Below are positions 3,670 to 62,292 of a DNA stretch of 64,000 nt, in pieces. Within the stretch, counting starts at the first letter, position 1, and each line of letters opens with the position of its first letter. Origin of the DNA: Arenicellales bacterium (GTDB lineage Bacteria > Pseudomonadota > Gammaproteobacteria > Arenicellales > JAHEKD01). The notes under the pieces were generated by a model. The model worked only from the letters and a program-made list of their open reading frames with translations. It was not told the origin of the DNA and did not search any database. The stretch spans positions 214,805 through 278,804 of the forward strand of contig CBDCFC010000025.1 in assembly GCA_965215945.1 (NCBI GenBank). Reading direction: 5' to 3'. A program made the position numbers and the translations under genes.

Positions 3670-3698
3670 TTGGGTAATATCAGTGCTGGTGCTAGTAT
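3670..3698 (+). promoter_or_regulatory. candidate sigma70-like promoter of the ABC gene
   Basis: TTGGGT (3670-3675), a 17-nt spacer, then TAGTAT (3693-3698). Only 6 nt separate the -10 from ATG 3705 and no Shine-Dalgarno is visible. Confidence 0.25.
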
Positions 3699-11775: not shown

Positions 11776-11931
11776 GTTTAAAGTATATATGTTTTGCTAT
11801 CAGTTATTTATACTGCCTGAAGTGTTCAGACTGTATTTTTTAGAGTCTCTTACAAAAATTCATTAATTTTGCATTTATTCGTAATCATGCTATTTAATTT
11901 AGGAAATACTCTAGGAGATTCTGGCCTTCGC

Positions 11932-13229
11932 CCACTGCTGTCCGGAATAAAAGATGTTGATGGTAGTGAAAGTGTTGCAGTGCGTGGGTTTTAAGGCTAA
12001 AACCCACACTGTCAACTTAAAACTAAGGCACTGCAACATGTATAGTAATACCCGATTTAGTGAATTATTGAAAGGCTTTCCGAAACAAAGTTTTCAGCAA
12101 TGTGTTCAACGCTATCAAGGCGATAAACACAGTAAAGGGTTTCGCTGTTTTGATCAGCTCATGGCGATGATGTACGGTCAATGAGCCGATTGCCGTTCCT
12201 TAAGAGAACTGGAAGCGGGGTTTAATGCCCAATGCGTCCATCATTACCACTTAGGCACCCGATCAATCAAGCGTTCGACCCTTTCCGATGCAAATGCGAA
12301 ACGTAGTGTTGAGATGTATAGTGCGTTCTGCGGTCAGTTACTGACGCAGGTGCATCGTCAATTGAAACGTGAGGTGAGTGATTTGTTGTATGTGCTGGAT
12401 TCAACCCCGATTCGGCTGAGTGGCCGAGGCTATGAGTGGGTACACGGTCATAGTCAACCGCATATTCCAGGCTTAAAGTTACATGTGCTCTATGCTCACG
12501 AGCAGGCCTTGCCTTGTGAGGTACAGATTACGGCATCGAAGGTCAATGATGTTGAGTTTGGCCGGGATATTAGTGCTGACCCTCACGCAACCTATGTGTT
12601 TGACAAAGGCTATTGTGACTATAATTGGTGGCATCAGCTGGATCAAGCGGGCAGTTATTTTGTCACCCGGTTCAAGCGTAATGCCGCGTTACGGCTGATT
12701 GAACAACGTGCCATCGAGTCTCAAGATGCTGAGATTATTTTAGCCGATGAGCTGGTCTGTTTTAAAAACAAACGCCCTGGGGGCGCACGGATCAATCCCT
12801 ATACCCAACCGCTGCGCCGGATTGTGGTGCAGCGGGAAGATCACCAGCAGCCGTTGATTATCGCCACCAATGATCTAACGAGCCGTGCCGGTGAGATCGC
12901 TCAAGTCTACAAACAGCGTTGGGGGATTGAATTGTGGTTTAAATGGTTAAAACAACGTTTGAAGATCAAACAGTTCTTTGGGCGCAGTGACAATGCAGTA
13001 CGAATTCAAATTCTAATCGCTTTAATTACGTATTTATTGCTGTATCAGTACCATCAACGCTCACAGACAACACAGGGTATCTATTTGTGGTTAGCGGCAC
13101 TTAGAGCAACTTTATTCCAACGCCCAGAGAGTGAATATATACGCTATAAAAAACGTCAACGGCAAACTCAATTCAACCTGCAACAACAACACCTATTACC
13201 TATATGAAATTATTCCGGACAGCAGTGGG
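11932..13229 (+). mobile_element. IS4-family insertion sequence (about 1.3 kb)
   Basis: Perfect 20-bp terminal inverted repeats: CCCACTGCTGTCCGGAATAA at 11931-11950 and its reverse complement at 13210-13229. Flanking direct repeat cCTTCGC / aCTTCGC. Single DDE transposase frame. Confidence 0.85.
12038..13207 (+). pseudogene. IS4-family DDE transposase (DUF4372-type N-terminus) interrupted by an in-frame TGA
   Basis: ORFs 11954-12184 and 12314-13207 are in the same frame. The sequence reads ...MAMMYGQ*ADCRSLRELEAGF..., with TGA at 12182-12184 where this family normally continues. Confidence 0.8.
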
Positions 13230-13312
13230 ACTTCGCCAGAATGACTGACGAGTTTGTATAGTTAAATTGACAGTTATCCAATGCAGTTAACTCTGTCAAC
13301 TATTTGCGTTAT

Positions 13313-22221: not shown

Positions 22222-22264
22222 GGCTCGTCATTCTGGAAGCTCGGAGAGCTATCCAGAATCTCCC
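22222..22264. repeat. REP-like palindromic unit (long form)
   Basis: GCTCGTCATTCTGGAAGCTCGGAGAGCTATCCAGAATCTCC. A near-identical copy lies at 25210-25248. Confidence 0.5.
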
Positions 22265-22345
22265 GACTTGCTCAAGGCACTAGCAGATGGCACCCCAGGT
22301 CGGTGTGATGATCAAGTATTTAATCTTCTGGGGAATTCGTAATAT

Positions 22346-24994: not shown

Positions 24995-25122
24995 TTTATT
25001 GTCCTTGTATTTAGTTAAATTCGGGCATTAATTCCTTGCACTATTATATTTTGAAGCTCATTTTTTAACTAGTGAGCATCCCACGGATTTATTGCAAGGC
25101 AGCTATTTACGGGAGTGCATTT

Positions 25123-25390
25123 GGAGATCCCGCAACAAGCCTGTGCCGGATACTGAATCGAGTTCAGCACAGGCTTTGATCCGGTATGCGGGACAGGGAT
25201 TCCAGTTTACGTCATTCTGGAAGCTCAAAGAGCTATCCAGAATCTCCCTAAAATAAGCGAGGAGTCACTAAGGAGATCCCGGAATAAATCCGGGAAAAGT
25301 TCTTTCCTTAAGTAAAGGTGTCATACTGGCGTAGGCCAGTATCTCCATGATGCCATGAGTTTAGTAGATTCGGCTTTCGCCGGAATGACG
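25123..25390. repeat. array of five short palindromic repeat modules (REP/MITE-like)
   Basis: Modules: GGAGATCCCGCAA...GCGGGA nested palindrome (25123-25198), GTCATTCTGG...CCAGAATCTCC (25210-25248), GGAGATCCCGGAATAAATCCGGG (25272-25294), GTCATACTGGCGTAGGCCAGTATCTCC (25320-25346), and an inverted short unit (25366-25390). Confidence 0.6.
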
Positions 25391-25438
25391 AGGGTTCAAA
25401 AGAAAGCATCGGTCTCCATCTGTATGAAACTGTAGGTC

Positions 25439-27901
25439 TTACGCCGCCTCAGAGGTGACTAACGGAGCAGTTTGTTGACCTTTAGCTATTTCGCTAGTTT
25501 CAAAATGATCAACATGAATCACTTCCATCAGCTCTTTGTCGAATTGAAATAACTGATCGGCTTCATCATCAGTAATTACACCTGCCTGTTGAGCTAACTC
25601 AATTTGCTCTTTACCCAGGGCCTTTTCCAGCTTTTCAGCTTTAATAGCATCGCGAATCTTTTTATAAATAGGTGCTAGCTCAAGGCTTTGCATAAACACT
25701 GCGTTGACATGGCCCACAGGGTTTGTTGGCAGATTTTGATCGAATGTGCCTTGTAACAAGCGTTCCCGGGTTTCGCTTGCCGTGGTGAACAATTTAACCA
25801 GTTTCTTGTCCTGATAGTCCCTTGGCATGTCAAACCTGGCGCCCAAAGGAAAAATAATAAATCGCATTTTCATCGCCAGGAATTTGCTGGGATAGTTTTG
25901 CAAGATTTCCTGCATGGCGATTTGATACTGATGGGTTAAATAATTCATCGTCCACTCAACTAACGGGTATTCTTCCTCAGGGCAACCCTCTGATTCATAG
26001 TGTTTCAATACCATGCTAGCCAGATACAAGTAGCTCAATAGATCACCCAGACGAGCTGACAGCATTTCCTTGAATTTGAGTTTAGACTGTAATGTCAGCA
26101 TGGAAACGTCGGCAATTAAGGCAAAAGCTGCGCTTAAGCGATTTAAATCGCGATAGTGCTTGGTTAATTTGGCATTGCCAGTCGTGGTGGCGAAGCGACC
26201 GCCTGTTACACCTAATACTAAAGAGCGAACAGCATTCGAGATTGAGAAACCAACGTGACCGAAGAAAACCTTGTCAAATTCGGATACAGTTGAATCGTTT
26301 ATTTCCTGACCAGCCAGTTCCATTTCTTTTAAGACATATGGATGGCTGCGAGTCGCACCCTGACCGAATATCATCAGGTTGCGAGTCATGATGTTTGCGC
26401 CCTCTACAGTGATGGCGACAGGAATGGAGCTGTAGGCATCGGCGATATAGTTTTTGGGGCCAAGCATAACGGCTTTACCCCCATGAATATCCATCGCGTC
26501 CAGGGCAACTTGACGGCCCATTTCGGTCAGATGATATTTAAGAATTGCAGACGGCACACTGGGTTTTTCGCCATAAGACAGCGATTGAGCTGTGTGCAAC
26601 CGTGCTGCATTCATAATGTAGGTCAGGCCGATAATACGCGCCAATGGCTTTTGTACACCTTCAAACATTGCAATCGGCAAACCAAACTGCTGGCGAACCG
26701 CGCTGTAGGCAGAGGTGCCAAGCAGCATGTGTTTAGCCAGTGAAGTGGAAATACTGGGCAGGGTGATACAACGGCCGACTGACAGGCAGTTGACCAACAT
26801 GGTCCAGCCTTTACCGGCCATTTCCGGCCCCCCGATAATGTAATCAAGTGGCACGAACACGTCTTCACCTTCGATTGGGCCATTTAAGAATGGATCACCA
26901 ATTGGGCGATGACGACGGCCAATTTTAATACCTTTGGTTTCGCGCGGAATCAAAGCACAGGTAATTCCATAATCGTCAACGTCACCAAGTAAATGATCGG
27001 GATCTTCCAGTCTGAATGCCAAACCGATTAATGTGGCAACCGGCGCCAGGGTGATATAACGTTTTTTGAAGTTAAGCTTCATGCCAAGTACTTCTTTGCC
27101 TTCAAATTCACCTTTGCAGATCACACCGGTGTCGGGTAATGAGGTGGCATCTGAACCCGCTAGCGGGCCAGTCAAGGCGAAGCAGGGCACATCAATGCCT
27201 TTGGCAAGTCGAGGCAGGTAGTAATTCTTTTGTTCCTCGGTGCCATATTTGATTAATAATTCGCCGGGGCCGAGCGAATTGGGTACGGTAATATAGTTGG
27301 CAATACAACCGCCGGCTGAGCCCAGCAAGCTGATAACTTCAGTCTGGGCCATGCCGGAGAAATCATGGCCGCCATATTCTTTGGGAATAATCATGCCCAA
27401 AAAGCCATTGTCTTTAATGAACTTTTCAATCTTGGGTGGAATGACAGTGGTATTGTGATTGACTTCCCAATTGTCAACCATGGCACATAATTCTTTTACG
27501 GGTCCATCGATAAAGACTTGCTCTTCTTCGCTGAAAGAGGGTTTAGGCAGGGAAAGCAATTTATTCCACTGAGGGTTGCCGCTGAATAATTCCCCGTCCC
27601 ACCAGACCGTGCCAGCATCAATGGCTTCTTGCTCAGTTTCAGAAATTTCTGGCAAAACATTTTTGAACCAGGCAAAAATGGGTTTGCTCAAATGTTTTTC
27701 TCTCAAGCTGTCTATTGATAACAGTCCTATCGCTGCTGCCGCAATAATCAGCAAAAAGGAAAGTATTCCACTTGCACCTGCAATCAACGAGAGTAACGCA
27801 GTAGCCGCCATCGCAATTGCCGAAGTACGCAGTGACATTTGCTTAAAGCTAAGGGTGAAAAACACGGCTAAAGCAATCAATAAAACGATAAATGTAGTCA
27901 T
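25439..27901 (-). CDS. fadE: acyl-CoA dehydrogenase FadE
   Basis: 820 aa with an N-terminal membrane segment followed by EQEAIDAGTVWWDGELFSGNPQW, collinear with E. coli FadE as I recall it. Confidence 0.9.
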   Translation of the reverse strand: MTTFIVLLIALAVFFTLSFKQMSLRTSAIAMAATALLSLIAGASGILSFLLIIAAAAIGLLSIDSLREKHLSKPIFAWFKNVLPEISETEQEAIDAGTVWWDGELFSGNPQWNKLLSLPKPSFSEEEQVFIDGPVKELCAMVDNWEVNHNTTVIPPKIEKFIKDNGFLGMIIPKEYGGHDFSGMAQTEVISLLGSAGGCIANYITVPNSLGPGELLIKYGTEEQKNYYLPRLAKGIDVPCFALTGPLAGSDATSLPDTGVICKGEFEGKEVLGMKLNFKKRYITLAPVATLIGLAFRLEDPDHLLGDVDDYGITCALIPRETKGIKIGRRHRPIGDPFLNGPIEGEDVFVPLDYIIGGPEMAGKGWTMLVNCLSVGRCITLPSISTSLAKHMLLGTSAYSAVRQQFGLPIAMFEGVQKPLARIIGLTYIMNAARLHTAQSLSYGEKPSVPSAILKYHLTEMGRQVALDAMDIHGGKAVMLGPKNYIADAYSSIPVAITVEGANIMTRNLMIFGQGATRSHPYVLKEMELAGQEINDSTVSEFDKVFFGHVGFSISNAVRSLVLGVTGGRFATTTGNAKLTKHYRDLNRLSAAFALIADVSMLTLQSKLKFKEMLSARLGDLLSYLYLASMVLKHYESEGCPEEEYPLVEWTMNYLTHQYQIAMQEILQNYPSKFLAMKMRFIIFPLGARFDMPRDYQDKKLVKLFTTASETRERLLQGTFDQNLPTNPVGHVNAVFMQSLELAPIYKKIRDAIKAEKLEKALGKEQIELAQQAGVITDDEADQLFQFDKELMEVIHVDHFETSEIAKGQQTAPLVTSEAA

Positions 27902-35114: not shown

Positions 35115-36302
35115 ATGACTAATCAACGAGATGCATATATTGTAAAAGCCGTACGTACGCCAGTGGCTAAATATAAAGGTGCTTTTAAACATGTGCGGCC
35201 GGACGATATGCTGGCCCATGTGCTTAAAGGTGTGGTGGCTGATCAGCCCGAAATAGCCAACGATGTTGAAGATGTCGTTGTTGGCTGTGCAATGCCTGAA
35301 GCCGAGCAGGGTATGAACGTGGCTCGAATCGGTGTGTTACTGGCGGGTTTTCCGGATAACGTACCCGCAGTCACAATCAACCGTTTTTGTTCTTCCGGTT
35401 CCCAGGCTGTCGCCATGGCGGCAGATAAAATTCGTCTTGGTGAAGCAGACGTAATGATCGGTGCTGGAACCGAATCGATGTCCATGGTGCCGATGATGGG
35501 CAACAAGGTCTCATTGAATCCAAAAGTGTTTGCTGATGACAATGTCGCCATTGCCTACGGTATGGGCATAACCGCTGAAAAAGTCGCAGAACGCTGGAAA
35601 GTCAATCGTGAAGACCAGGATGCGTTCGCGGCTGAATCTCATGCTCGTGCTATAAATGCCACTCAAAATGGCTGGTTCAAAGACGAAATTCTGCCTTATG
35701 AAATAGTGACGTCACATCCATCTGCAGACGGGCTGGGCGTTGATACTAAATCTCGAACTATGACTGATGACGAAGGCCCACGCCCCGGTTCAACACCAGA
35801 AGTATTAGGTAAGCTTCGAACTGTATTCAAAGTGAATGGTTCCGTGACAGCCGGTAATTCCTCGCAAATGTCAGATGGCGCAGGTGCTGTGTTACTGGCC
35901 AGTGAAGCAGCGCTGAAAAAATATAACCTTGAACCTATCGGCAGATTTGTCACCTCAGCGGTTGCAGGTGTCGAACCCGAGGTCATGGGAATCGGCCCTA
36001 AGGAAGCAATTCCAATTTGCTTAAACAAGGCAGGTATGACGCTTGACCAACTTGACTGGATCGAGCTCAACGAAGCATTTGCCGCACAGGCGCTGGCTGT
36101 CTGTAATGAACTTGATCTGGACAAATCCAAAGTCAATCCCAACGGCGGTGCCATCGCACTCGGTCATCCGCTTGGCGCAACCGGAGCCATCCGTACAGCG
36201 ACCCTGATGAACGGCCTTCAACGTACCGGCGGTAAATACGGCATGGTGACGATGTGTATTGGTACGGGTATGGGCTTTGCAATGATTATTGAAGCAATTT
36301 AA
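35115..36302 (+). CDS. fadA: acetyl-CoA C-acyltransferase (3-ketoacyl-CoA thiolase)
   Basis: 395 aa with the NRFCSSG active-site Cys, NEAFAAQ, GGAIALGHPLGATG and CIGTGMG. Confidence 0.9.
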   Translation: MTNQRDAYIVKAVRTPVAKYKGAFKHVRPDDMLAHVLKGVVADQPEIANDVEDVVVGCAMPEAEQGMNVARIGVLLAGFPDNVPAVTINRFCSSGSQAVAMAADKIRLGEADVMIGAGTESMSMVPMMGNKVSLNPKVFADDNVAIAYGMGITAEKVAERWKVNREDQDAFAAESHARAINATQNGWFKDEILPYEIVTSHPSADGLGVDTKSRTMTDDEGPRPGSTPEVLGKLRTVFKVNGSVTAGNSSQMSDGAGAVLLASEAALKKYNLEPIGRFVTSAVAGVEPEVMGIGPKEAIPICLNKAGMTLDQLDWIELNEAFAAQALAVCNELDLDKSKVNPNGGAIALGHPLGATGAIRTATLMNGLQRTGGKYGMVTMCIGTGMGFAMIIEAI

Positions 36303-36310
36303 AAAGCAGT

Positions 36311-36499
36311 TGTCATTCTGAAAGTACCTAAGGCGCTATCCAGAATCTCCCAACCTCTACCCCCAAATAAAATTCGTCATTCCGGAAACACCGTAAGGCG
36401 TTATCCGGAATCTCTTGAAGTTGTAAATTCCCCGGATTTATTCTGGGGTCTCCCAAATGTGGCGATAAACCACAAAGATCCCGCAAAGTGTGCGGGAAA
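36311..36499. repeat. array of four palindromic repeat modules downstream of fadA
   Basis: GTCATTCTGAAAG...CCAGAATCTCC (36311-36351), GTCATTCCGGAAAC...CCGGAATCTC (36375-36414), CCCCGGATTTATTCTGGGGTCTCC (36430-36453, inverted) and GATCCCGCAAAGTGTGCGGGAAA (36477-36499). Confidence 0.6.
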
Positions 36500-36559
36500 T
36501 ACCAGTCTAGTTATCCCGAGTGCATTGGATAGATATTTGTTTCCGATAAAATAACCTAT

Positions 36560-47283: not shown

Positions 47284-49023
47284 CTAGCTGTTTAAGTTTT
47301 TTTCAATGGCATCCAGAAAACCATACATATCGACAATTTTTTCTGATTCAGGATTCGTGGTTTTGCCTTTAATATCCGGAGTAACGGTGCCCTGGTCAAC
47401 CGTATCGATCAATGCGGTTTTTAAAGCGTTTGAATAATCAACCAGTGGTTGGTTATCCTCTCGCTTGCCCAAAGTTTCCAGTGCATTAGCGACGGCATAG
47501 ATTAAAGCCGATGAATTAAAGTGTGCCTGTTTGCCATCGGACTCAAGATAACGTAAATAAAGATCATGCGCTGTGCCGTGCGGCGCCTCATAGAGCATGG
47601 TGCCATCTTTACTCTCGATAATCGAGCTGGCAGTGGCCAGACTGCCGCCCAGCGCCGCTGAAATATCGGAGAAAATATCGCCGTCCAGGTTCTGAGCTGG
47701 GTACAGGGCATTGCGCGGCGGATCGGTAATCATTTTTCTAAGTTGTTTAGACGGACGCATAATCATAAATGAGGGAGGTGGTGTAGCTGCTTTTGCAAGT
47801 TTTTGACGTACCTCATGAATTGCATAACTAAATACCTCATCGTATTCCATGTATTCACGCTTTAAACCGAAATAGACTTCTTTATTTTTGATGGAAGCAT
47901 CGCGAAACACCTGGGTGATCCAGTCGGTGATTGCTTCCAGATCGTTAGACATAAACAGCAGCGGGTCGCCTTTTTTGACTTCACGTGCGTGTTTTTCTTC
48001 GCCGTCTACGATGATTTTTATGATTCCATCTTCTTCCATCGGTGCGTTGTAGCTGCCATATTGATCACCGCCGCCGGCGCTCATGCGCGAAATAGAGACG
48101 TGATACTTGCGTGTGGGAATGCCGTATTTTTTTAATTCCTCGACCAGTTTGAATAACTTGCGACCGGTGTTGTTGTCGGGCACGCCCCACAACGCGCGCT
48201 CGGGAGGATTGGCAACAATCCGAGCGGCTTGGGCATCGATTAATCCATAATAGTATGAAAGTCCAGCTTGCTCGACTTTATCTTTATAGTCAGATTCATA
48301 AATATCTTCAATGGCTTTGCGCATGGTGCCGTCATAACCAGCGATGACTGTATCTTTCAAGCCCAGATAAATATCCCGTTTTTCACTAATTGCGCGCTTA
48401 AAGAAATGATGGGCCCAAGCTTTGACTTCTTCAATGCTGTTAGTAGCCAGTAACCAAGGGTCGCCGCGCTTGATAAAGCGTCGATGAAGTTCTACCGGAT
48501 CACCGCTGGGGCCCACAAACATGACTTTGGCTACACCGGTGGATTTGGATAACTGGTTAAAACTGTCCTTGATACCACCGCTTTCCATGGTATCGACTTC
48601 GATGTCACGACCTACCCAGCCCGGGCGCTTGACTTCAAGATTACGAAACTCAATATCCTCGCGGGTAATATTGCCACCGATACCTTTGCGGATGGCCCCG
48701 TTAGGCGATTTAGTGGCTAACCGATGTAAATCATCTTCCTTAATTGACGGATGTTTGGCTAGTAGCTCGTCTAATTGTTCACGATTTACAGTCATTCCCG
48801 CATTTTTGATGCCAACACCATGTTCTTTCAAAGCATCTATTGCATTCAGAACGGCCTGGCCGTTGGTAAGTAGACGATTTTCAGCCGTTAGATCAATTTC
48901 GACTAAATTAATATCAAGCCGATTGGTAATGAATTGCTCAATGATTCGTGTAAACGCGATTTGCGCCATTTCATCACCGTGCAGAATGACTAACGGTTTT
49001 TCAACTGCAATCTTTTCGCCCAT
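47284..49023 (-). CDS. isocitrate dehydrogenase-family protein (eukaryote-like type) with internal duplication
   Basis: Start set at MGEKIAV (ATG 49021-49023, GGAGA Shine-Dalgarno). It has HGDEM, KSPNGAIRKGIGGNITRE, GGGDQYG and NLDGDIFSD...EAPHGTAHD motifs. At 579 aa it is longer than the roughly 410 aa that is usual. Confidence 0.7.
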   Translation of the reverse strand: MGEKIAVEKPLVILHGDEMAQIAFTRIIEQFITNRLDINLVEIDLTAENRLLTNGQAVLNAIDALKEHGVGIKNAGMTVNREQLDELLAKHPSIKEDDLHRLATKSPNGAIRKGIGGNITREDIEFRNLEVKRPGWVGRDIEVDTMESGGIKDSFNQLSKSTGVAKVMFVGPSGDPVELHRRFIKRGDPWLLATNSIEEVKAWAHHFFKRAISEKRDIYLGLKDTVIAGYDGTMRKAIEDIYESDYKDKVEQAGLSYYYGLIDAQAARIVANPPERALWGVPDNNTGRKLFKLVEELKKYGIPTRKYHVSISRMSAGGGDQYGSYNAPMEEDGIIKIIVDGEEKHAREVKKGDPLLFMSNDLEAITDWITQVFRDASIKNKEVYFGLKREYMEYDEVFSYAIHEVRQKLAKAATPPPSFMIMRPSKQLRKMITDPPRNALYPAQNLDGDIFSDISAALGGSLATASSIIESKDGTMLYEAPHGTAHDLYLRYLESDGKQAHFNSSALIYAVANALETLGKREDNQPLVDYSNALKTALIDTVDQGTVTPDIKGKTTNPESEKIVDMYGFLDAIEKNLNS

Positions 49024-49168
49024 GAATTCTCCGCGAATGTTATGTGAATATCTTGGGGCTAGTTTAGTGGAAAACACCCCGGAATTAAAACAGGGCTGTA
49101 GTTTTTGCTTAATCGATTCGTTGGATAATAGTATGCTCTTAGTTATCCATCTGCATTATAGTTTTTAA

Positions 49169-49594
49169 ATGTATAAAATATTGTTAATAGTAGTGAGTAA
49201 TTTTTTCATTAGCGTTCAGGCAGGGCCAATAATTTCGATTCCGCCAGGTCAGTATCAAATGATCAGTAAAACATTATTACCGCATCTTGAAGAAAATTTA
49301 AGCAATACGATTAAAAAAGAAATTCGTTGTTTGGGTCACGTGGAAATAAACACACTGTTTCCAATTCTAGAGCACTCGTCATTCAATCAGTGTGACTTGT
49401 TCCAGTTAAAAACCGAGATGAATTCTTATGAGCTACGATGTGAAAATACGGGTGCAGCTTCTGGCAATGCTGTTATGCTGATTGATGAGAACCAATTTTT
49501 GGCACGGCTGAATATAAAAATGGGTGCAAAAAATATGACGATGACTCAAAGGGTTGAGGCTAAAAAATTATCAGACTGCGATTCCAACAGTTAA
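49169..49594 (+). CDS. hypothetical secreted protein
   Basis: 141 aa with an N-terminal signal-like hydrophobic segment. Family uncertain. Confidence 0.45.
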   Translation: MYKILLIVVSNFFISVQAGPIISIPPGQYQMISKTLLPHLEENLSNTIKKEIRCLGHVEINTLFPILEHSSFNQCDLFQLKTEMNSYELRCENTGAASGNAVMLIDENQFLARLNIKMGAKNMTMTQRVEAKKLSDCDSNS

Positions 49595-49604
49595 GTATAT
49601 GAAG

Positions 49605-50015
49605 TCAGTGCTGTCCCATTAAAGTCATGAGATTAAAGTGTAAGCTCCTGTAAATCAAAGGATAAACAGAGAAATACCAGAATGAGACATGCATCAGAGA
49701 AATCCCAGCATCATTCCGGAACCGCCACAGGTGGTATCCGGACGAAGTGCCCTTTGGGTGATCCAGGGGCATTTATTTGAAAACAAATATATCAGAGATC
49801 AATGACCTGATTCAAGCGCACGCCGTAACGGGCTTGTGTCGGGACAATCAGGTTTTTGCAATCCCGGCCCTGTCAGGCCAACGATACATTTCATTGCCTG
49901 TTTTAACTTTCATCTTGAACAAGATGGTACTGACTGAAAGAATTGATGACAGAGATGCCGCTGGATGCCGGATCGAGTCCGGCATGACGAAATAATGTTA
50001 ACAGGACAGCACTGA
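49605..50015. mobile_element. 411-bp MITE-like non-autonomous element
   Basis: Terminal inverted repeats TCAGTGCTGTCC (49605-49616) and GGACAGCACTGA (50004-50015). Perfect 7-bp direct repeat TATGAAG at 49598-49604 and 50016-50022. No credible CDS inside. Confidence 0.6.
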
Positions 50016-50016
50016 T

Positions 50017-50520
50017 ATGAAGTATAAACTCAAACAAGGTACAGCAAAAAAACTACGCGAACAGTATTACTTGATTATGTTGTTTTGGGTGGTTATCTGG
50101 ATGTTGATGGCTGCCTTATTTTATGCCGATGAAAATAGACAGACATTTTTAATCTACTTGGCTGGATCGGTTCTGTTAATACCGTTTTTGTATATAAGGA
50201 AAATAAAACCATACCTCAACAATTTGACCGACAATGTTAGTAACGCGTACCTGGAGTTTGTTGATAATAAAATTATCTTTAATCACTTTGAGAATTTAAA
50301 AAAATTCGGCCAGGAGAAAATCGAATTCGATATTGCAGATATAGTTAACCTTAAAAAAGCATTTCGAAAAGATGATTCTGTCAACAAGGTGACGCTGACT
50401 CTTAAAAACAAATCAAAAATCACGCTCGAAGATTTTGAAAATATGACAGATTTGCTGGAAGCAATTTTTTCAAAATCAGAAGTGATTCATGGTCAAGCGA
50501 CAGGTTCTAATTCGGAATAA
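50017..50520 (+). CDS. hypothetical membrane protein (two TM helices plus a bacterial PH-like C-terminal domain)
   Basis: 167 aa. Its ATG lies inside the right-hand copy of the MITE target-site duplication. Confidence 0.5.
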   Translation: MKYKLKQGTAKKLREQYYLIMLFWVVIWMLMAALFYADENRQTFLIYLAGSVLLIPFLYIRKIKPYLNNLTDNVSNAYLEFVDNKIIFNHFENLKKFGQEKIEFDIADIVNLKKAFRKDDSVNKVTLTLKNKSKITLEDFENMTDLLEAIFSKSEVIHGQATGSNSE

Positions 50521-50916
50521 ACCTGTTATTTATCTGAAGCAAAAATTTATTTTCCGATCCTGATGGTAATGGTTTAGAGATGTATTGTAATACCCGTGCA
50601 GAATACTCAACTAAAAATTGGAACGGTATTGACAAAAACCTAACTGAGGAAATTTTGTTAGCCACGCTAAATTAATTCTCGAATTAACTATCTTTAAATG
50701 CCTGATTTTCGACTAAAATAAAAATAATGAATCCAGAATAATTTATTAATAACAATAACTTAAATTCAATATTTAATTTTATTTCTAGACAAAGTGACAA
50801 TTGTTCACAAAGTCTTCCCATAAAAAACTTAAAATTCGCCGCTGGTTTATATCAAGCAATAACGCTTAAACCCCTAGGTTCTAAATACCCTAAGACTCAA
50901 ATTGGAGATCGTAATA

Positions 50917-52395
50917 ATGCACAAAAATATTCTTGAAACTAAGCTGCTATTGGCTCTTTTAATTGCCACAGCATTACTTTCTGGATGTTCGACTTTTTCG
51001 AAGGTTCAAGAAGAGGAACTGCAAGACGAAAATGCTACTTTAGCACAAGCAACGACAGAAGCAGCCGCAGCCTCAACTGAAACGGCATCAATTGATTCCT
51101 CCTTGTTTCCACCGAACCCTCAACCAGGTCATTGCTATGCGCGTGTTTTAATTCCAGCTCAATATGAAACTGTAACTGAGGAAGTTGTTGTTCAGGAAGC
51201 AAGTGAAGAGATTGAAGTTATTCCAGCTGAATATGATTGGGTGGAAGAAACCGTTTTAGTAAAAGAAGAATCTGTCACGCTCGAAACTGTTCCGGCCGAA
51301 TACGAGCAAGTTACTGAAGAAGTCCTGATCAAACCTGAAACTGTAAAACTCATTCCTGTTCCGGCTGAATATGAAGAAGTTATGGAAGAAGTAATGGTTA
51401 AACCTGAAACCGTAAAACTGGTCGAAGTTCCAGCTGAATATGAAACTGTAACTGAAGAAGTGTTGGTCAAACCTGAAACCGTAAAACTGATTGCAGTTCC
51501 GGCCGAATATGAAGAAGTTATGGAAGAAGTAATGGTTAAACCTGAAACCGTAAAATTAGTTGAAGTTCCCGCACAATACGAAACTATTACCGAAGAAGTG
51601 CTAGATAAGCCAGCTCATACTGTGTGGAAAAGCGGTTCCGGCTTAATTGATAATGCTTTGCAAACTCGTACAAATGAAAGCACTGGTGAAATCATGTGCT
51701 TAGTCGAGGTGCCGGCCACTTACAAAATGGTTACTAAAAAGGTTCTAGTTGCTGCAGCTACCACTCGAGAAGAAGTAATTCCAGCAGAGTACAACACAGT
51801 GACAAAAACTGTTGTAAAAACACCAGCGACAACCCGTGAGGAAATTATTCCTGCTGAATACGGAAGTGTGACAAAAACTGTTGTAAAAACACCAGCAACA
51901 ACCCGTGAAGAGATTATTCCGGCCGAATACAAAACGGTGACGAAAACTGTTGTAAAAACACCAGCGACAACTCGTGAGGAAATTATTCCTGCTGAATACG
52001 GAACCGTAACCAAAACTGTGGTCAAAACCCCGGCAACGACTCGCGAAGTTACCGTTCCAGCAGAGTACGCAACTGTCCGCAAACAAGTTGAAGTTTCTCC
52101 AGCCAAGGAGAACAAGACAATTATTCCTGCGGAAGTGGCAACTGTCGAGAAACGTAATAAAGTTTCTGAAGAATCGTTGTTATGGCGTGAAGTTCTGTGT
52201 GATGTAAATATGACGCCAGCACTAGTTTCTGACTTACAGGAAAAACTACAGGGTGTTGGTTATTACAATGGCCCTGTTGATGGTATCTACGGTCCAATGA
52301 CACAGCGTGCGGTTAACAGTTATGCTTCGTCTCAAGGTCTGCCAACGGGAACCAACTATGTTTCAATGGATACAGCAGAGGCTTTGGGTTTGTAA
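50917..52395 (+). CDS. repeat-rich lipoprotein with C-terminal peptidoglycan-binding domain
   Basis: Start set at MHKNIL (ATG 50917) with lipobox LLSGCS. About thirteen 23-aa PAEY repeats. The C-terminus LQEKLQGVGYYNGPVDGIYGPMTQRAV is PG_binding_1-like. Confidence 0.7.
   Translation: MHKNILETKLLLALLIATALLSGCSTFSKVQEEELQDENATLAQATTEAAAASTETASIDSSLFPPNPQPGHCYARVLIPAQYETVTEEVVVQEASEEIEVIPAEYDWVEETVLVKEESVTLETVPAEYEQVTEEVLIKPETVKLIPVPAEYEEVMEEVMVKPETVKLVEVPAEYETVTEEVLVKPETVKLIAVPAEYEEVMEEVMVKPETVKLVEVPAQYETITEEVLDKPAHTVWKSGSGLIDNALQTRTNESTGEIMCLVEVPATYKMVTKKVLVAAATTREEVIPAEYNTVTKTVVKTPATTREEIIPAEYGSVTKTVVKTPATTREEIIPAEYKTVTKTVVKTPATTREEIIPAEYGTVTKTVVKTPATTREVTVPAEYATVRKQVEVSPAKENKTIIPAEVATVEKRNKVSEESLLWREVLCDVNMTPALVSDLQEKLQGVGYYNGPVDGIYGPMTQRAVNSYASSQGLPTGTNYVSMDTAEALGL
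51151..52122 (+). repeat. in-frame 69-nt tandem repeats (two diverged blocks)
   Basis: Units start at 51151, 51220, 51289, 51358, 51427, 51496 and 51565 (acidic type), and at 51709, 51778, 51847, 51916, 51985 and 52054 (basic/Thr type). The units at 51358 and 51496 are nearly identical, giving a 138-nt super-period. Confidence 0.85.
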
Positions 52396-61718: not shown

Positions 61719-61805
61719 AATCATGTGATGGGATATAAAGTCTCTATTATTTTAATGTTTAACCCGTTGTGTATTTAGATTTATATATTTAAGCTACTAT
61801 TGCCA

Positions 61806-61847
61806 GGCTCGTCATTGTGGAATTTCCAAAGGAAATATCCGCAATCC
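61806..61847. repeat. REP-like palindromic unit (diverged)
   Basis: GGCTCGTCATTGTGGAATTTCCAAAGGAAATATCCGCAATCC has the same GTCAT...stem-loop...ATCC layout as the other units. Confidence 0.45.
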
Positions 61848-62107
61848 AACGGCTTTTCTTACTACTCAGTGAATACAGTGGAGATTAACCCTTTGAAGAA
61901 GTACGTTGAAACGGGCGTGAGTTGAAATCAGTGTTCTACAAGTTCTTGCTATTCTTTAGTGATTTAACCGCGTTGAGATTTTTCTGATCCATGCTAATGA
62001 GTCCTGGTAGCATATCAATTTTTTCCAGGCCTAATTCACCGTACATTTTGAAACACCAACTTGGCGTCTGTGATTATGGTGTTGTTAGAAATGTCAATGA
62101 ATGCCGG

Positions 62108-62150
62108 ATTCGTCATCCTGAACTTGATTCAGGACCGGCATGACGAAAAT
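62108..62150. repeat. REP-like palindromic unit (variant)
   Basis: TTCGTCATCCTGAACTTGATTCAGGACCGGCATGACGAA. Its CCGGCATGACGAA tail also occurs at 49978-49990 inside the MITE. Confidence 0.4.
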
Positions 62151-62292
62151 GTAGTTAACGGGGCAGCCGTGAAATCAAGTAGAATGATACACCATTAAGT
62201 TTGAGGTAATAAACTATCGGAATTCAATGTGACAAGGGAGATTTGAAAATACCACTACCAGAAAAAACAAGTCAGTAACACAGAGGAGTTGT

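Follow-up and report, generated by a model that had tools for sequence, protein, structure and literature searches.

Why should two genes that probably belong together be separated by more than 400 nt of non-coding DNA? In the 64-kb stretch of an Arenicellales bacterium contig analysed here (the window), a gene for a 141-aa protein (49169-49594, + strand, stop codon TAA at 49592-49594) is followed by a gene for a 167-aa membrane protein (50017-50520, + strand), and 422 nt now lie between the stop of the one and the start of the other. Taken as a whole, the evidence makes it very probable that the spacer is a non-autonomous transposable element of the miniature inverted-repeat type (MITE), which carries the ends of a clade of IS4-family insertion sequences (ISs), was inserted by a transposase acting in trans, duplicated the start codon of the 167-aa gene and thereby split the gene pair.

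The element and its target site

Direct reading of the sequence and comparison with relatives place the MITE at 49606-50014 (+ strand). It is 409 bp long, non-coding and 45.7% G+C, beginning with CAGTG and ending with CACTG. The left terminal inverted repeat, CAGTGCTGTCCCATTAA (49606-49622, + strand), was delimited by repeat search and clade comparison, and the right one (49998-50014, - strand), with the reverse complement CAGTGCTGTCCTGTTAA, by repeat search and direct reading. The repeats are imperfect and 17-18 nt long; the arms 49605-49622 and 49998-50015 are 89% complementary over 18 nt, in agreement with the imperfect repeat of about 18 bp described in an earlier, sequence-only reading of this DNA. 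Both ends carry CAGTGCTGT, that is, a CA------T signature with a relaxed third base. The window has no occurrence of the 12-mer core TCAGTGCTGTCC other than the two at these ends, with about 0.17 chance matches expected. Immediately outside them stands a perfect 9-nt direct repeat, ATATGAAGT, at 49597-49605 and 50015-50023. The sequence-only reading had an element of 411 bp (49605-50015) flanked by the 7-bp repeat TATGAAG. Since the direct repeat is 9 nt and not 7, the outermost T/A that was counted as element can belong to the duplication, and the 409-bp limits are settled by comparison: CA...TG ends with 9-bp duplications are found throughout, both in the family copies and in the clade's full-length ISs. 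A 12-mer reported at 3677-3688 is present but is a chance match, several other exact matches of 12-14 nt to the element occurring here and there in the window (E-values 0.08 to 1.3).

In the coordinates of the 167-aa gene, the 9-bp target runs from -2 to +7. The right copy of the duplication supplies the working start codon and, because the 9 bp were duplicated across that codon, the reading frame stays intact (ATG-AAG-T...). The left copy contains an orphan ATG at 49599, which by direct reading opens a 7-codon mini open reading frame (ORF), MKSVLSH*, at 49599-49622 (+ strand) that runs into the left inverted repeat. Ten homologues of the 167-aa protein (55-75% identical) share its aligned start, MK[YF][KR]LK; by this conservation the ATG at 50017 is the true start, and an in-frame upstream extension is impossible because of the TAA at 49999-50001. 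The duplicated start codon and the orphan ATG had been proposed before and are borne out by the conserved start position and the direct reading. Removal of the MITE and one repeat copy gives ...AAC AGT TAA GTAT ATG AAG TAT AAA CTC..., reproducing the excision sequence given in the sequence-only reading. The reconstructed distance from the 141-aa stop to the 167-aa ATG is 4 nt, and the predicted junction of an empty allele is ...CAACAGTTAAGTATATGAAGTATAAACTCAAAC.

No trace of a transposase was detected inside the MITE. Pfam has no match for its longest ORF (72 aa), the best blastx E-value against six clade transposases was 0.96, and no IS subterminal DNA was found in the MITE. As RNA, the MITE folds beyond shuffled controls (-136 kcal/mol, z = -5.4). 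Rfam gave no match at gathering score in the window and only far sub-threshold noise within the MITE. The proposed MITE insertion is thus sustained by the inverted repeats, the perfect duplication, the lack of a transposase remnant, the excess of folding and the relatives described below, which have 9-bp duplications of their own. The element falls within the small size range of MITEs (about 50-1000 bp, without transposase coding capacity), has inverted repeats and a target duplication of fixed length, and its ends are related to those of autonomous ISs at the level of the clade. One intact MITE and one decayed right end are present within the window. A foreign origin of the MITE on the basis of G+C content was considered and rejected, 45.7% being close to the window mean of 43.5%.

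Source of the ends and relatives of the element

A resident IS4-family IS lies at 11933-13227 (+ strand, 1295 bp), with inverted repeats CACTGCTGTCCGGAATAA that are identical over the first 18 nt, or 20 nt if the flanking CC/GG is counted. Its duplication had been put at about 7 bp; it is 10 bp long (11923-11932 and 13228-13237, GGCCTTCGCC / GGACTTCGCC), 9/10 identical. The transposase has matches in Pfam (DDE_Tnp_1) and NCBIfam (NF033592 'IS4 family transposase', E = 1e-71), and its identity to that of ISRm16 is 42-44%. One in-frame TGA (12182-12184), at a position that is Leu in relatives, is all that interrupts its ORF (12038-13207, 389 codons); this points to a copy that lost its function only recently, or else to an error in the sequencing.

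To what group of ISs, then, do the ends of the MITE belong? Reading the ends of annotated relatives from plasmid records gave CAGGGCTGTCCGGGG for ISRm16 (no duplication evident), CACTACTGTCCGG for ISGme2 (9-bp duplication), CACTGCTGTCCCATA for ISAbe18 (a perfect 10-bp duplication), and CATTGTTGTCCCATTAAAAT and CAGTAGTGTCCCAACG for the IS4 elements of Bacteroides and Rhodoferax, respectively (9 bp in each). Across the MITE ends and those of these five ISs, positions 1-2, 4 and 7-11 (CA.T..TGTCC) are invariant or nearly so. Six aligned transposases were used to search IMG/VR, which yielded 68 loci, 41 of them with recognisable end pairs. These 41 loci provide 25 distinct pairs; every pair contains the motif, and up to 18 of 20 positions are the same as in the MITE ends. 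With the end counted from CA, perfect 9-bp duplications flank 20 of the 36 distinct full-length clade insertions that could be scored, and many of the insertion sites are AT-rich. The motif match together with the same 9-bp duplication rule indicates that the MITE carries the ends of the NF033592 IS4 clade. For the IS4Sa subgroup, published work gives CA------T ends, relaxed at the third base, and direct repeats 8-10 bp long (PMC2266710, Table 1). The MITE shows both the end signature and the repeat length of this subgroup, to which the clade is likened by the published signature. Thus, the MITE resembles ISs of the ISRm16/ISGme2/ISAbe18 type in its CA.T..TGTCC[C/G] ends (up to 17-18/20 identity to individual ISs), its relaxed third base and its 9-bp duplication (9-10 bp in the named ISs). 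Unlike the ISRm16-type ISs of 1260-1334 bp, it is 409 bp long and without a transposase gene, and its interior and its subterminal hairpin with the motif CATGACGAAA are absent from the full-length IS4 elements examined.

The sequence-only reading attributed mobilisation to the transposase family of the resident IS. As far as the family is concerned this stands, on the clade ends and the 9-bp rule. The narrower proposal, that the resident IS itself or an intact sister copy in the genome supplied the transposase, is unlikely. The resident IS is of the same clade and in the same genome, and its outer 11 nt match those of the MITE at 10 positions, the single mismatch noted earlier (11/11 for the 223-bp relatives). 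Past position 11, however, the ends diverge, with GGAATAA in the resident IS against CATTAA or TGTTAA. Within the first 20 nt, 12-13 positions of the MITE's left end match the resident IS, fewer than the 15 that match ISRm16 of Sinorhizobium and the 17 that match the Bacteroides plasmid IS4. In the characterised IS4-family transposases of Tn5 and Tn10, recognition covers the inner part of the end of about 19 bp, which weighs against a resident source as well. With its diverging ends and the in-frame TGA in its gene, the resident copy is not supported as the mobilising one, and the likeness of the MITE ends to those of the resident IS is a property of the clade and not evidence of a parent and its offspring.

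Relatives of the MITE were sought through its ends. A scan of species-representative genomes for both 11-nt ends 372-402 nt apart returned three matches, about the number estimated by chance. The sole true relative among them is in L005, the Ectothiorhodospiraceae metagenome-assembled genome NORP100 from North Pond, a name used in an ISME J article about the subseafloor aquifer at North Pond (PMC5739024). This element is 396 bp long with ends as in the MITE; its right 55 nt are 82% identical, its interior is unrelated and its flanks match at 8 of 9 positions. The other two matches, in Mediterraneibacter (L003) and Actinokineospora (L004), were rejected as having nothing in common with the MITE beyond the 11-mers.

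A right-end pattern derived from the MITE and the L005 element, CATGACGAAA-N3-8-TTAAC-N0-2-GGACAGCA, was then scanned against JGI metagenomes. Four contigs (L006-L009) were recovered, each with one element of 220-223 bp; these elements are 90-96% identical to one another and stand in four different contexts. Two have perfect 9-bp duplications (GCAAAAAGA and ATACTTAAT), one matches at 8/9 positions and one has none. The best-preserved 223-bp copies have perfect 18-nt inverted repeats, CACTGCTGTCCCGTTAAC, and the 223-bp elements are more structured still than the MITE (fold z = -11.2). In L009 the copy at 282-504 has intact ends and flanks that do not match (TTGAACACTGGA / ATAAAATTACTA); two copies may have recombined, the assembly may be chimeric, or a deletion may have occurred next to the element. 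All relatives are recovered by a profile built on the right 60 nt, which in addition finds a decayed copy in the window at 62112-62172 (nhmmer E = 6e-13). This is the right end of a second family element (CCGGCATGACGAAAATGTAGTTAACGGGGCAGCCGTG, + strand) within a 574-bp intergenic region (61719-62292), which also holds a decayed hairpin module (61807-61851), has no recognisable left end and is probably an old, eroded insertion.

All members of the family have ends of the form CA[C/G]TGCTGTCCC[G/A]TTAA, with C as the third base in the 223-bp elements, against G in L005 and the window MITE. Just inside the right end each has a hairpin followed by the invariant CATGACGAAA, the stem sequence differing between size classes. 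In the MITE this is GCCGGA-TCGAG-TCCGGC followed by CATGACGAAA (49958-49997, + strand), and 37-56 nt at the right end are common to the 409-, 223- and 396-bp elements. The MITE is therefore like the L005-L009 elements in its ends, in the right subterminal hairpin with CCGGCATGACGAAA and in the 9-bp duplications, and the 223-bp elements share with it the internal GTCATTCCGGA hairpin module; it is unlike them in length and interior.

An exact 26-mer of the left end had no match in species-representative genomes, and the plasmid collection queried with the 411 bp had none either. In viral contigs the 17-nt end gave three isolated chance matches, none with a partner end, and the right-end pattern gave no match. 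A full-text literature search for the end sequences of the MITE returned unrelated primers for the polymerase chain reaction only, and the family, with its 409-, 396- and 223-bp members, is apparently undescribed so far. A parallel in organisation is found in Porphyromonas gingivalis, where the MITEs BrickBuilt, MITE293 and MITE700 share only inverted repeats with resident ISs (PMC4596501). Like these, the elements described here are small and non-coding, have IS-like inverted repeats, show no transposase remnant and form sub-families with common ends and different interiors. The P. gingivalis MITEs are of IS5 type and the duplications of BrickBuilt are short and irregular, whereas the present ends are of IS4 type with regular 9-bp duplications and there is no internal minisatellite.

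The relatives also bear on whether the 409 bp are a remnant formed in place, a full-length IS of the clade having inserted here and lost its interior, so that the 409-bp sequence never moved as a MITE. A single copy of the 409-bp sequence is known, and the resident IS shows that ISs of the clade are decaying in the source genome. We nevertheless consider a remnant quite improbable. The interior holds neither a coding trace of a transposase nor IS subterminal DNA. The right 37-56 nt are shared with non-coding elements of 223 and 396 bp, of which the 223-bp set has clearly transposed as small units, and CATGACGAAA is present in none of the 41 full-length clade ISs examined.

Hairpin modules inside and outside the element

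The presence of two REP-like modules in the element (REP, repetitive extragenic palindromic) had been pointed out in the sequence-only reading, and folding, pattern and profile evidence agree that they are real hairpins. The internal module, CATCATTCCGGA-stem/loop-ATCCGGA at 49709-49745 (+ strand), is one copy of a dispersed REP-like family. These modules have the form GTCATTCYGGA-variable stem-ATCCRGAAT, and a shortened, inverted form adjoins the right end of the MITE, followed by CATGACGAAA. The motif GTCATKCCGGA, with at most one mismatch, has 12 matches in the window against 1.9 expected, and a looser hairpin pattern has 12 against 1.6. An alignment of eight module copies contains compensatory changes in 7 of 14 predicted pairs. 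Rfam holds no match for the module. It is found both free in intergenic DNA and within MITEs, and conserved hairpin modules are present inside every size class of the MITE family.

The dispersed unit is about 40 nt long and consists of (C/T)GTCATTCYGGA, a variable stem and loop, and ATCCRGAATCTCCC. Copies in the window lie at 22224-22266, 25208-25250, 36309-36353, 36373-36418, 49707-49751 and 61807-61851, and outside it at 6636-6680 of L006 and 381-425 of L009. Two intergenic regions, 25100-25480 and 36280-36520, have the look of mosaics of different short G+C-rich hairpins, similar to bacterial interspersed mosaic elements (BIMEs), the latter including two tandem module copies at 36309-36418.

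That the spacer is itself nothing but a native intergenic cluster of this BIME-like kind, with a short inverted repeat by coincidence and no transposon, is very hard to credit: the two modules of a window-dispersed family, the compensatory changes in that family and the similar mosaics elsewhere in the window would suit it, but a perfect 9-bp duplication regenerates a conserved start codon, the ends agree with those of an IS4 clade that obeys this 9-bp rule too, related elements elsewhere have duplications of their own, and relatives exist in which the gene pair abuts without a spacer. REP and BIME sequences, which are spread by REP-associated tyrosine transposases (RAYT), are palindromes without inverted terminal repeats or target duplication; the window element has both, and contains REP-like hairpins.

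What are the hairpins doing in an element with IS4-type ends? A speculative answer, to which we give a low probability, is that MITEs have repeatedly arisen de novo, without deletion of a parent IS, by the joining of hairpins of this family to IS4-type ends, or that the hairpin is a functional site or RNA signal. De novo assembly would explain both the absence of a parent with the subterminal motif and the unrelated interiors. On the second reading, the hairpin would be a site for a host factor or the transposase, or a signal at the RNA level acting on the adjacent gene.

The gene pair before and after insertion

The 141-aa protein has a signal-peptide-like N-terminus and a weak Pfam match to DUF3617 (E = 0.0013, below the curated cut-off); its partner has two predicted membrane helices and belongs to no Pfam family. 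Both genes are AT-rich (36% and 33% G+C, respectively, vs 43.5% for the window) and may be a laterally acquired or fast-evolving pair. We compared the upstream context of the 167-aa gene in eight relatives that carry a homologue of it (L001, L002, L014, L015, L016, L021, L022 and L023). In the two most distant ones (L021 and L022, 55% identity), a 141-aa homologue of 158 or 169 aa (40-42% identical) lies directly upstream, the two genes sharing an ATGA overlap without any spacer. L002 has a 141-aa homologue of 144 aa (57% identity), and a 316-aa gene intervenes that overlaps the downstream gene by ATGA. A gene of 316-319 aa stands upstream in L014 and L016, which are without a 141-aa homologue, an unrelated gene of 417-445 aa in L001 and L023, and a gene for an AsnC-type regulator in L015. 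The pairing of the two genes appears from these arrangements to be ancestral. The recurrence of the tight arrangement in distant lineages supports the reconstruction of a split pair, and the earlier proposal that a tight two-gene unit was split receives the same support from the ATGA overlaps.

The whole stretch from the isocitrate dehydrogenase gene to the 167-aa gene (47284-50520) differs in content in almost every relative. The variants between the two genes are a 445-aa gene, 144- plus 316-aa genes, 440- plus 319-aa genes, an IS fragment plus a 316-aa gene, an AsnC regulator gene, and a 158- or 169-aa gene; L016 and L002 have IS genes nearby as well. To judge from gene content, this is a variable spot, a hot spot of rearrangement. 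Past the pair, at 50902-52395, lies an ORF for a predicted lipoprotein-like protein of 497 aa made up of 69-nt (23-aa) tandem repeats of the type PAEYxxVTEEV; by eye, its C-terminal part may be a peptidoglycan-binding domain.

Several observations weigh against the insertion of a MITE into an ancestral pair. The gene directly upstream of the 167-aa homologue is not a 141-aa homologue in six of the eight relatives, and the closest relative of the 167-aa protein (75% identical) has a different gene there. The empty-site comparison rested on distant relatives, none of them conspecific, the pair abutting in L021 and L022. No second copy of the 409-bp element was found in the rest of the window, in species-representative genomes (at the level of the pattern) or in JGI metagenomes, and the interior of the MITE is unrelated to those of the 396-bp and 223-bp relatives. 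A full-length IS with these exact ends and the CATGACGAAA motif was found neither in JGI metagenomes nor in viral contigs nor among the 41 ISs. A six-frame translation of the MITE compared with 5.8 billion predicted proteins gave nothing at E <= 1. Finally, no sigma-70-like site on the + strand passed a scan of 48900-50700.

For a MITE inserted in trans, the events would run as follows. A DDE transposase of the NF033592 clade (ISRm16, ISGme2 and ISAbe18-like, with IS4Sa-type ends) would have acted on the MITE and made staggered cuts 9 bp apart across ATATGAAGT. Repair would have duplicated the 9 bp, so that the 167-aa gene retained an intact ATG and an orphan ATG was left 4 nt after the 141-aa stop. 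Before the insertion the two genes, 4 nt apart, were probably translationally coupled. After it the coupling would be lost, as ribosomes ending the 141-aa ORF could restart only on the orphan mini-ORF. The right end of the MITE would become the 5' leader of the 167-aa gene, whose transcription would have to cross the 409 nt of a highly structured spacer. Loss of coupling with some polarity, not inactivation, is the likely outcome.

How might the 167-aa gene now be expressed? An AGGA at 50003-50006, within the right inverted repeat, has its last base 10 nt before the 167-aa ATG and could serve as a Shine-Dalgarno sequence. No outward promoter from the right end of the MITE passed the promoter scan. 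By eye, TTAACA/TATAAA is the only candidate pair; it was rejected, its spacer being 19 nt and the start falling downstream of the ATG. A terminator-like hairpin of 8 pairs (49751-49769), followed by CATTTATTTG, lies inside the MITE at 49751-49779 (+ strand), a match to the consensus only. With no + strand promoter-like site found in the scan and with a terminator-like hairpin in the MITE, read-through from the promoter of the 141-aa gene across the folded spacer is the most likely route of transcription. MITEs such as the Correia elements of Neisseria (Correia repeat enclosed elements, CREE) and those of the RUP and ERIC type are likewise small and structured, stand beside or between genes and can alter the transcription, RNA stability or translation of a neighbour. 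Correia elements duplicate TA and have defined promoters and sites for integration host factor (IHF); unlike them, the window MITE has no detected outward promoter, and there is no sequence relationship.

The locus is an ordinary process caught in a clean example, and the general understanding of MITEs is unchanged by it. What it offers is a well-delimited case of a staggered 9-bp insertion that hit a start codon but left the gene whole, replaced the leader of the downstream gene and probably uncoupled the pair. Because the ends of the MITE family link it to one specific clade of IS4 elements, in which a 9-bp duplication is a strict rule, the family should be useful for annotation in uncultured bacteria.

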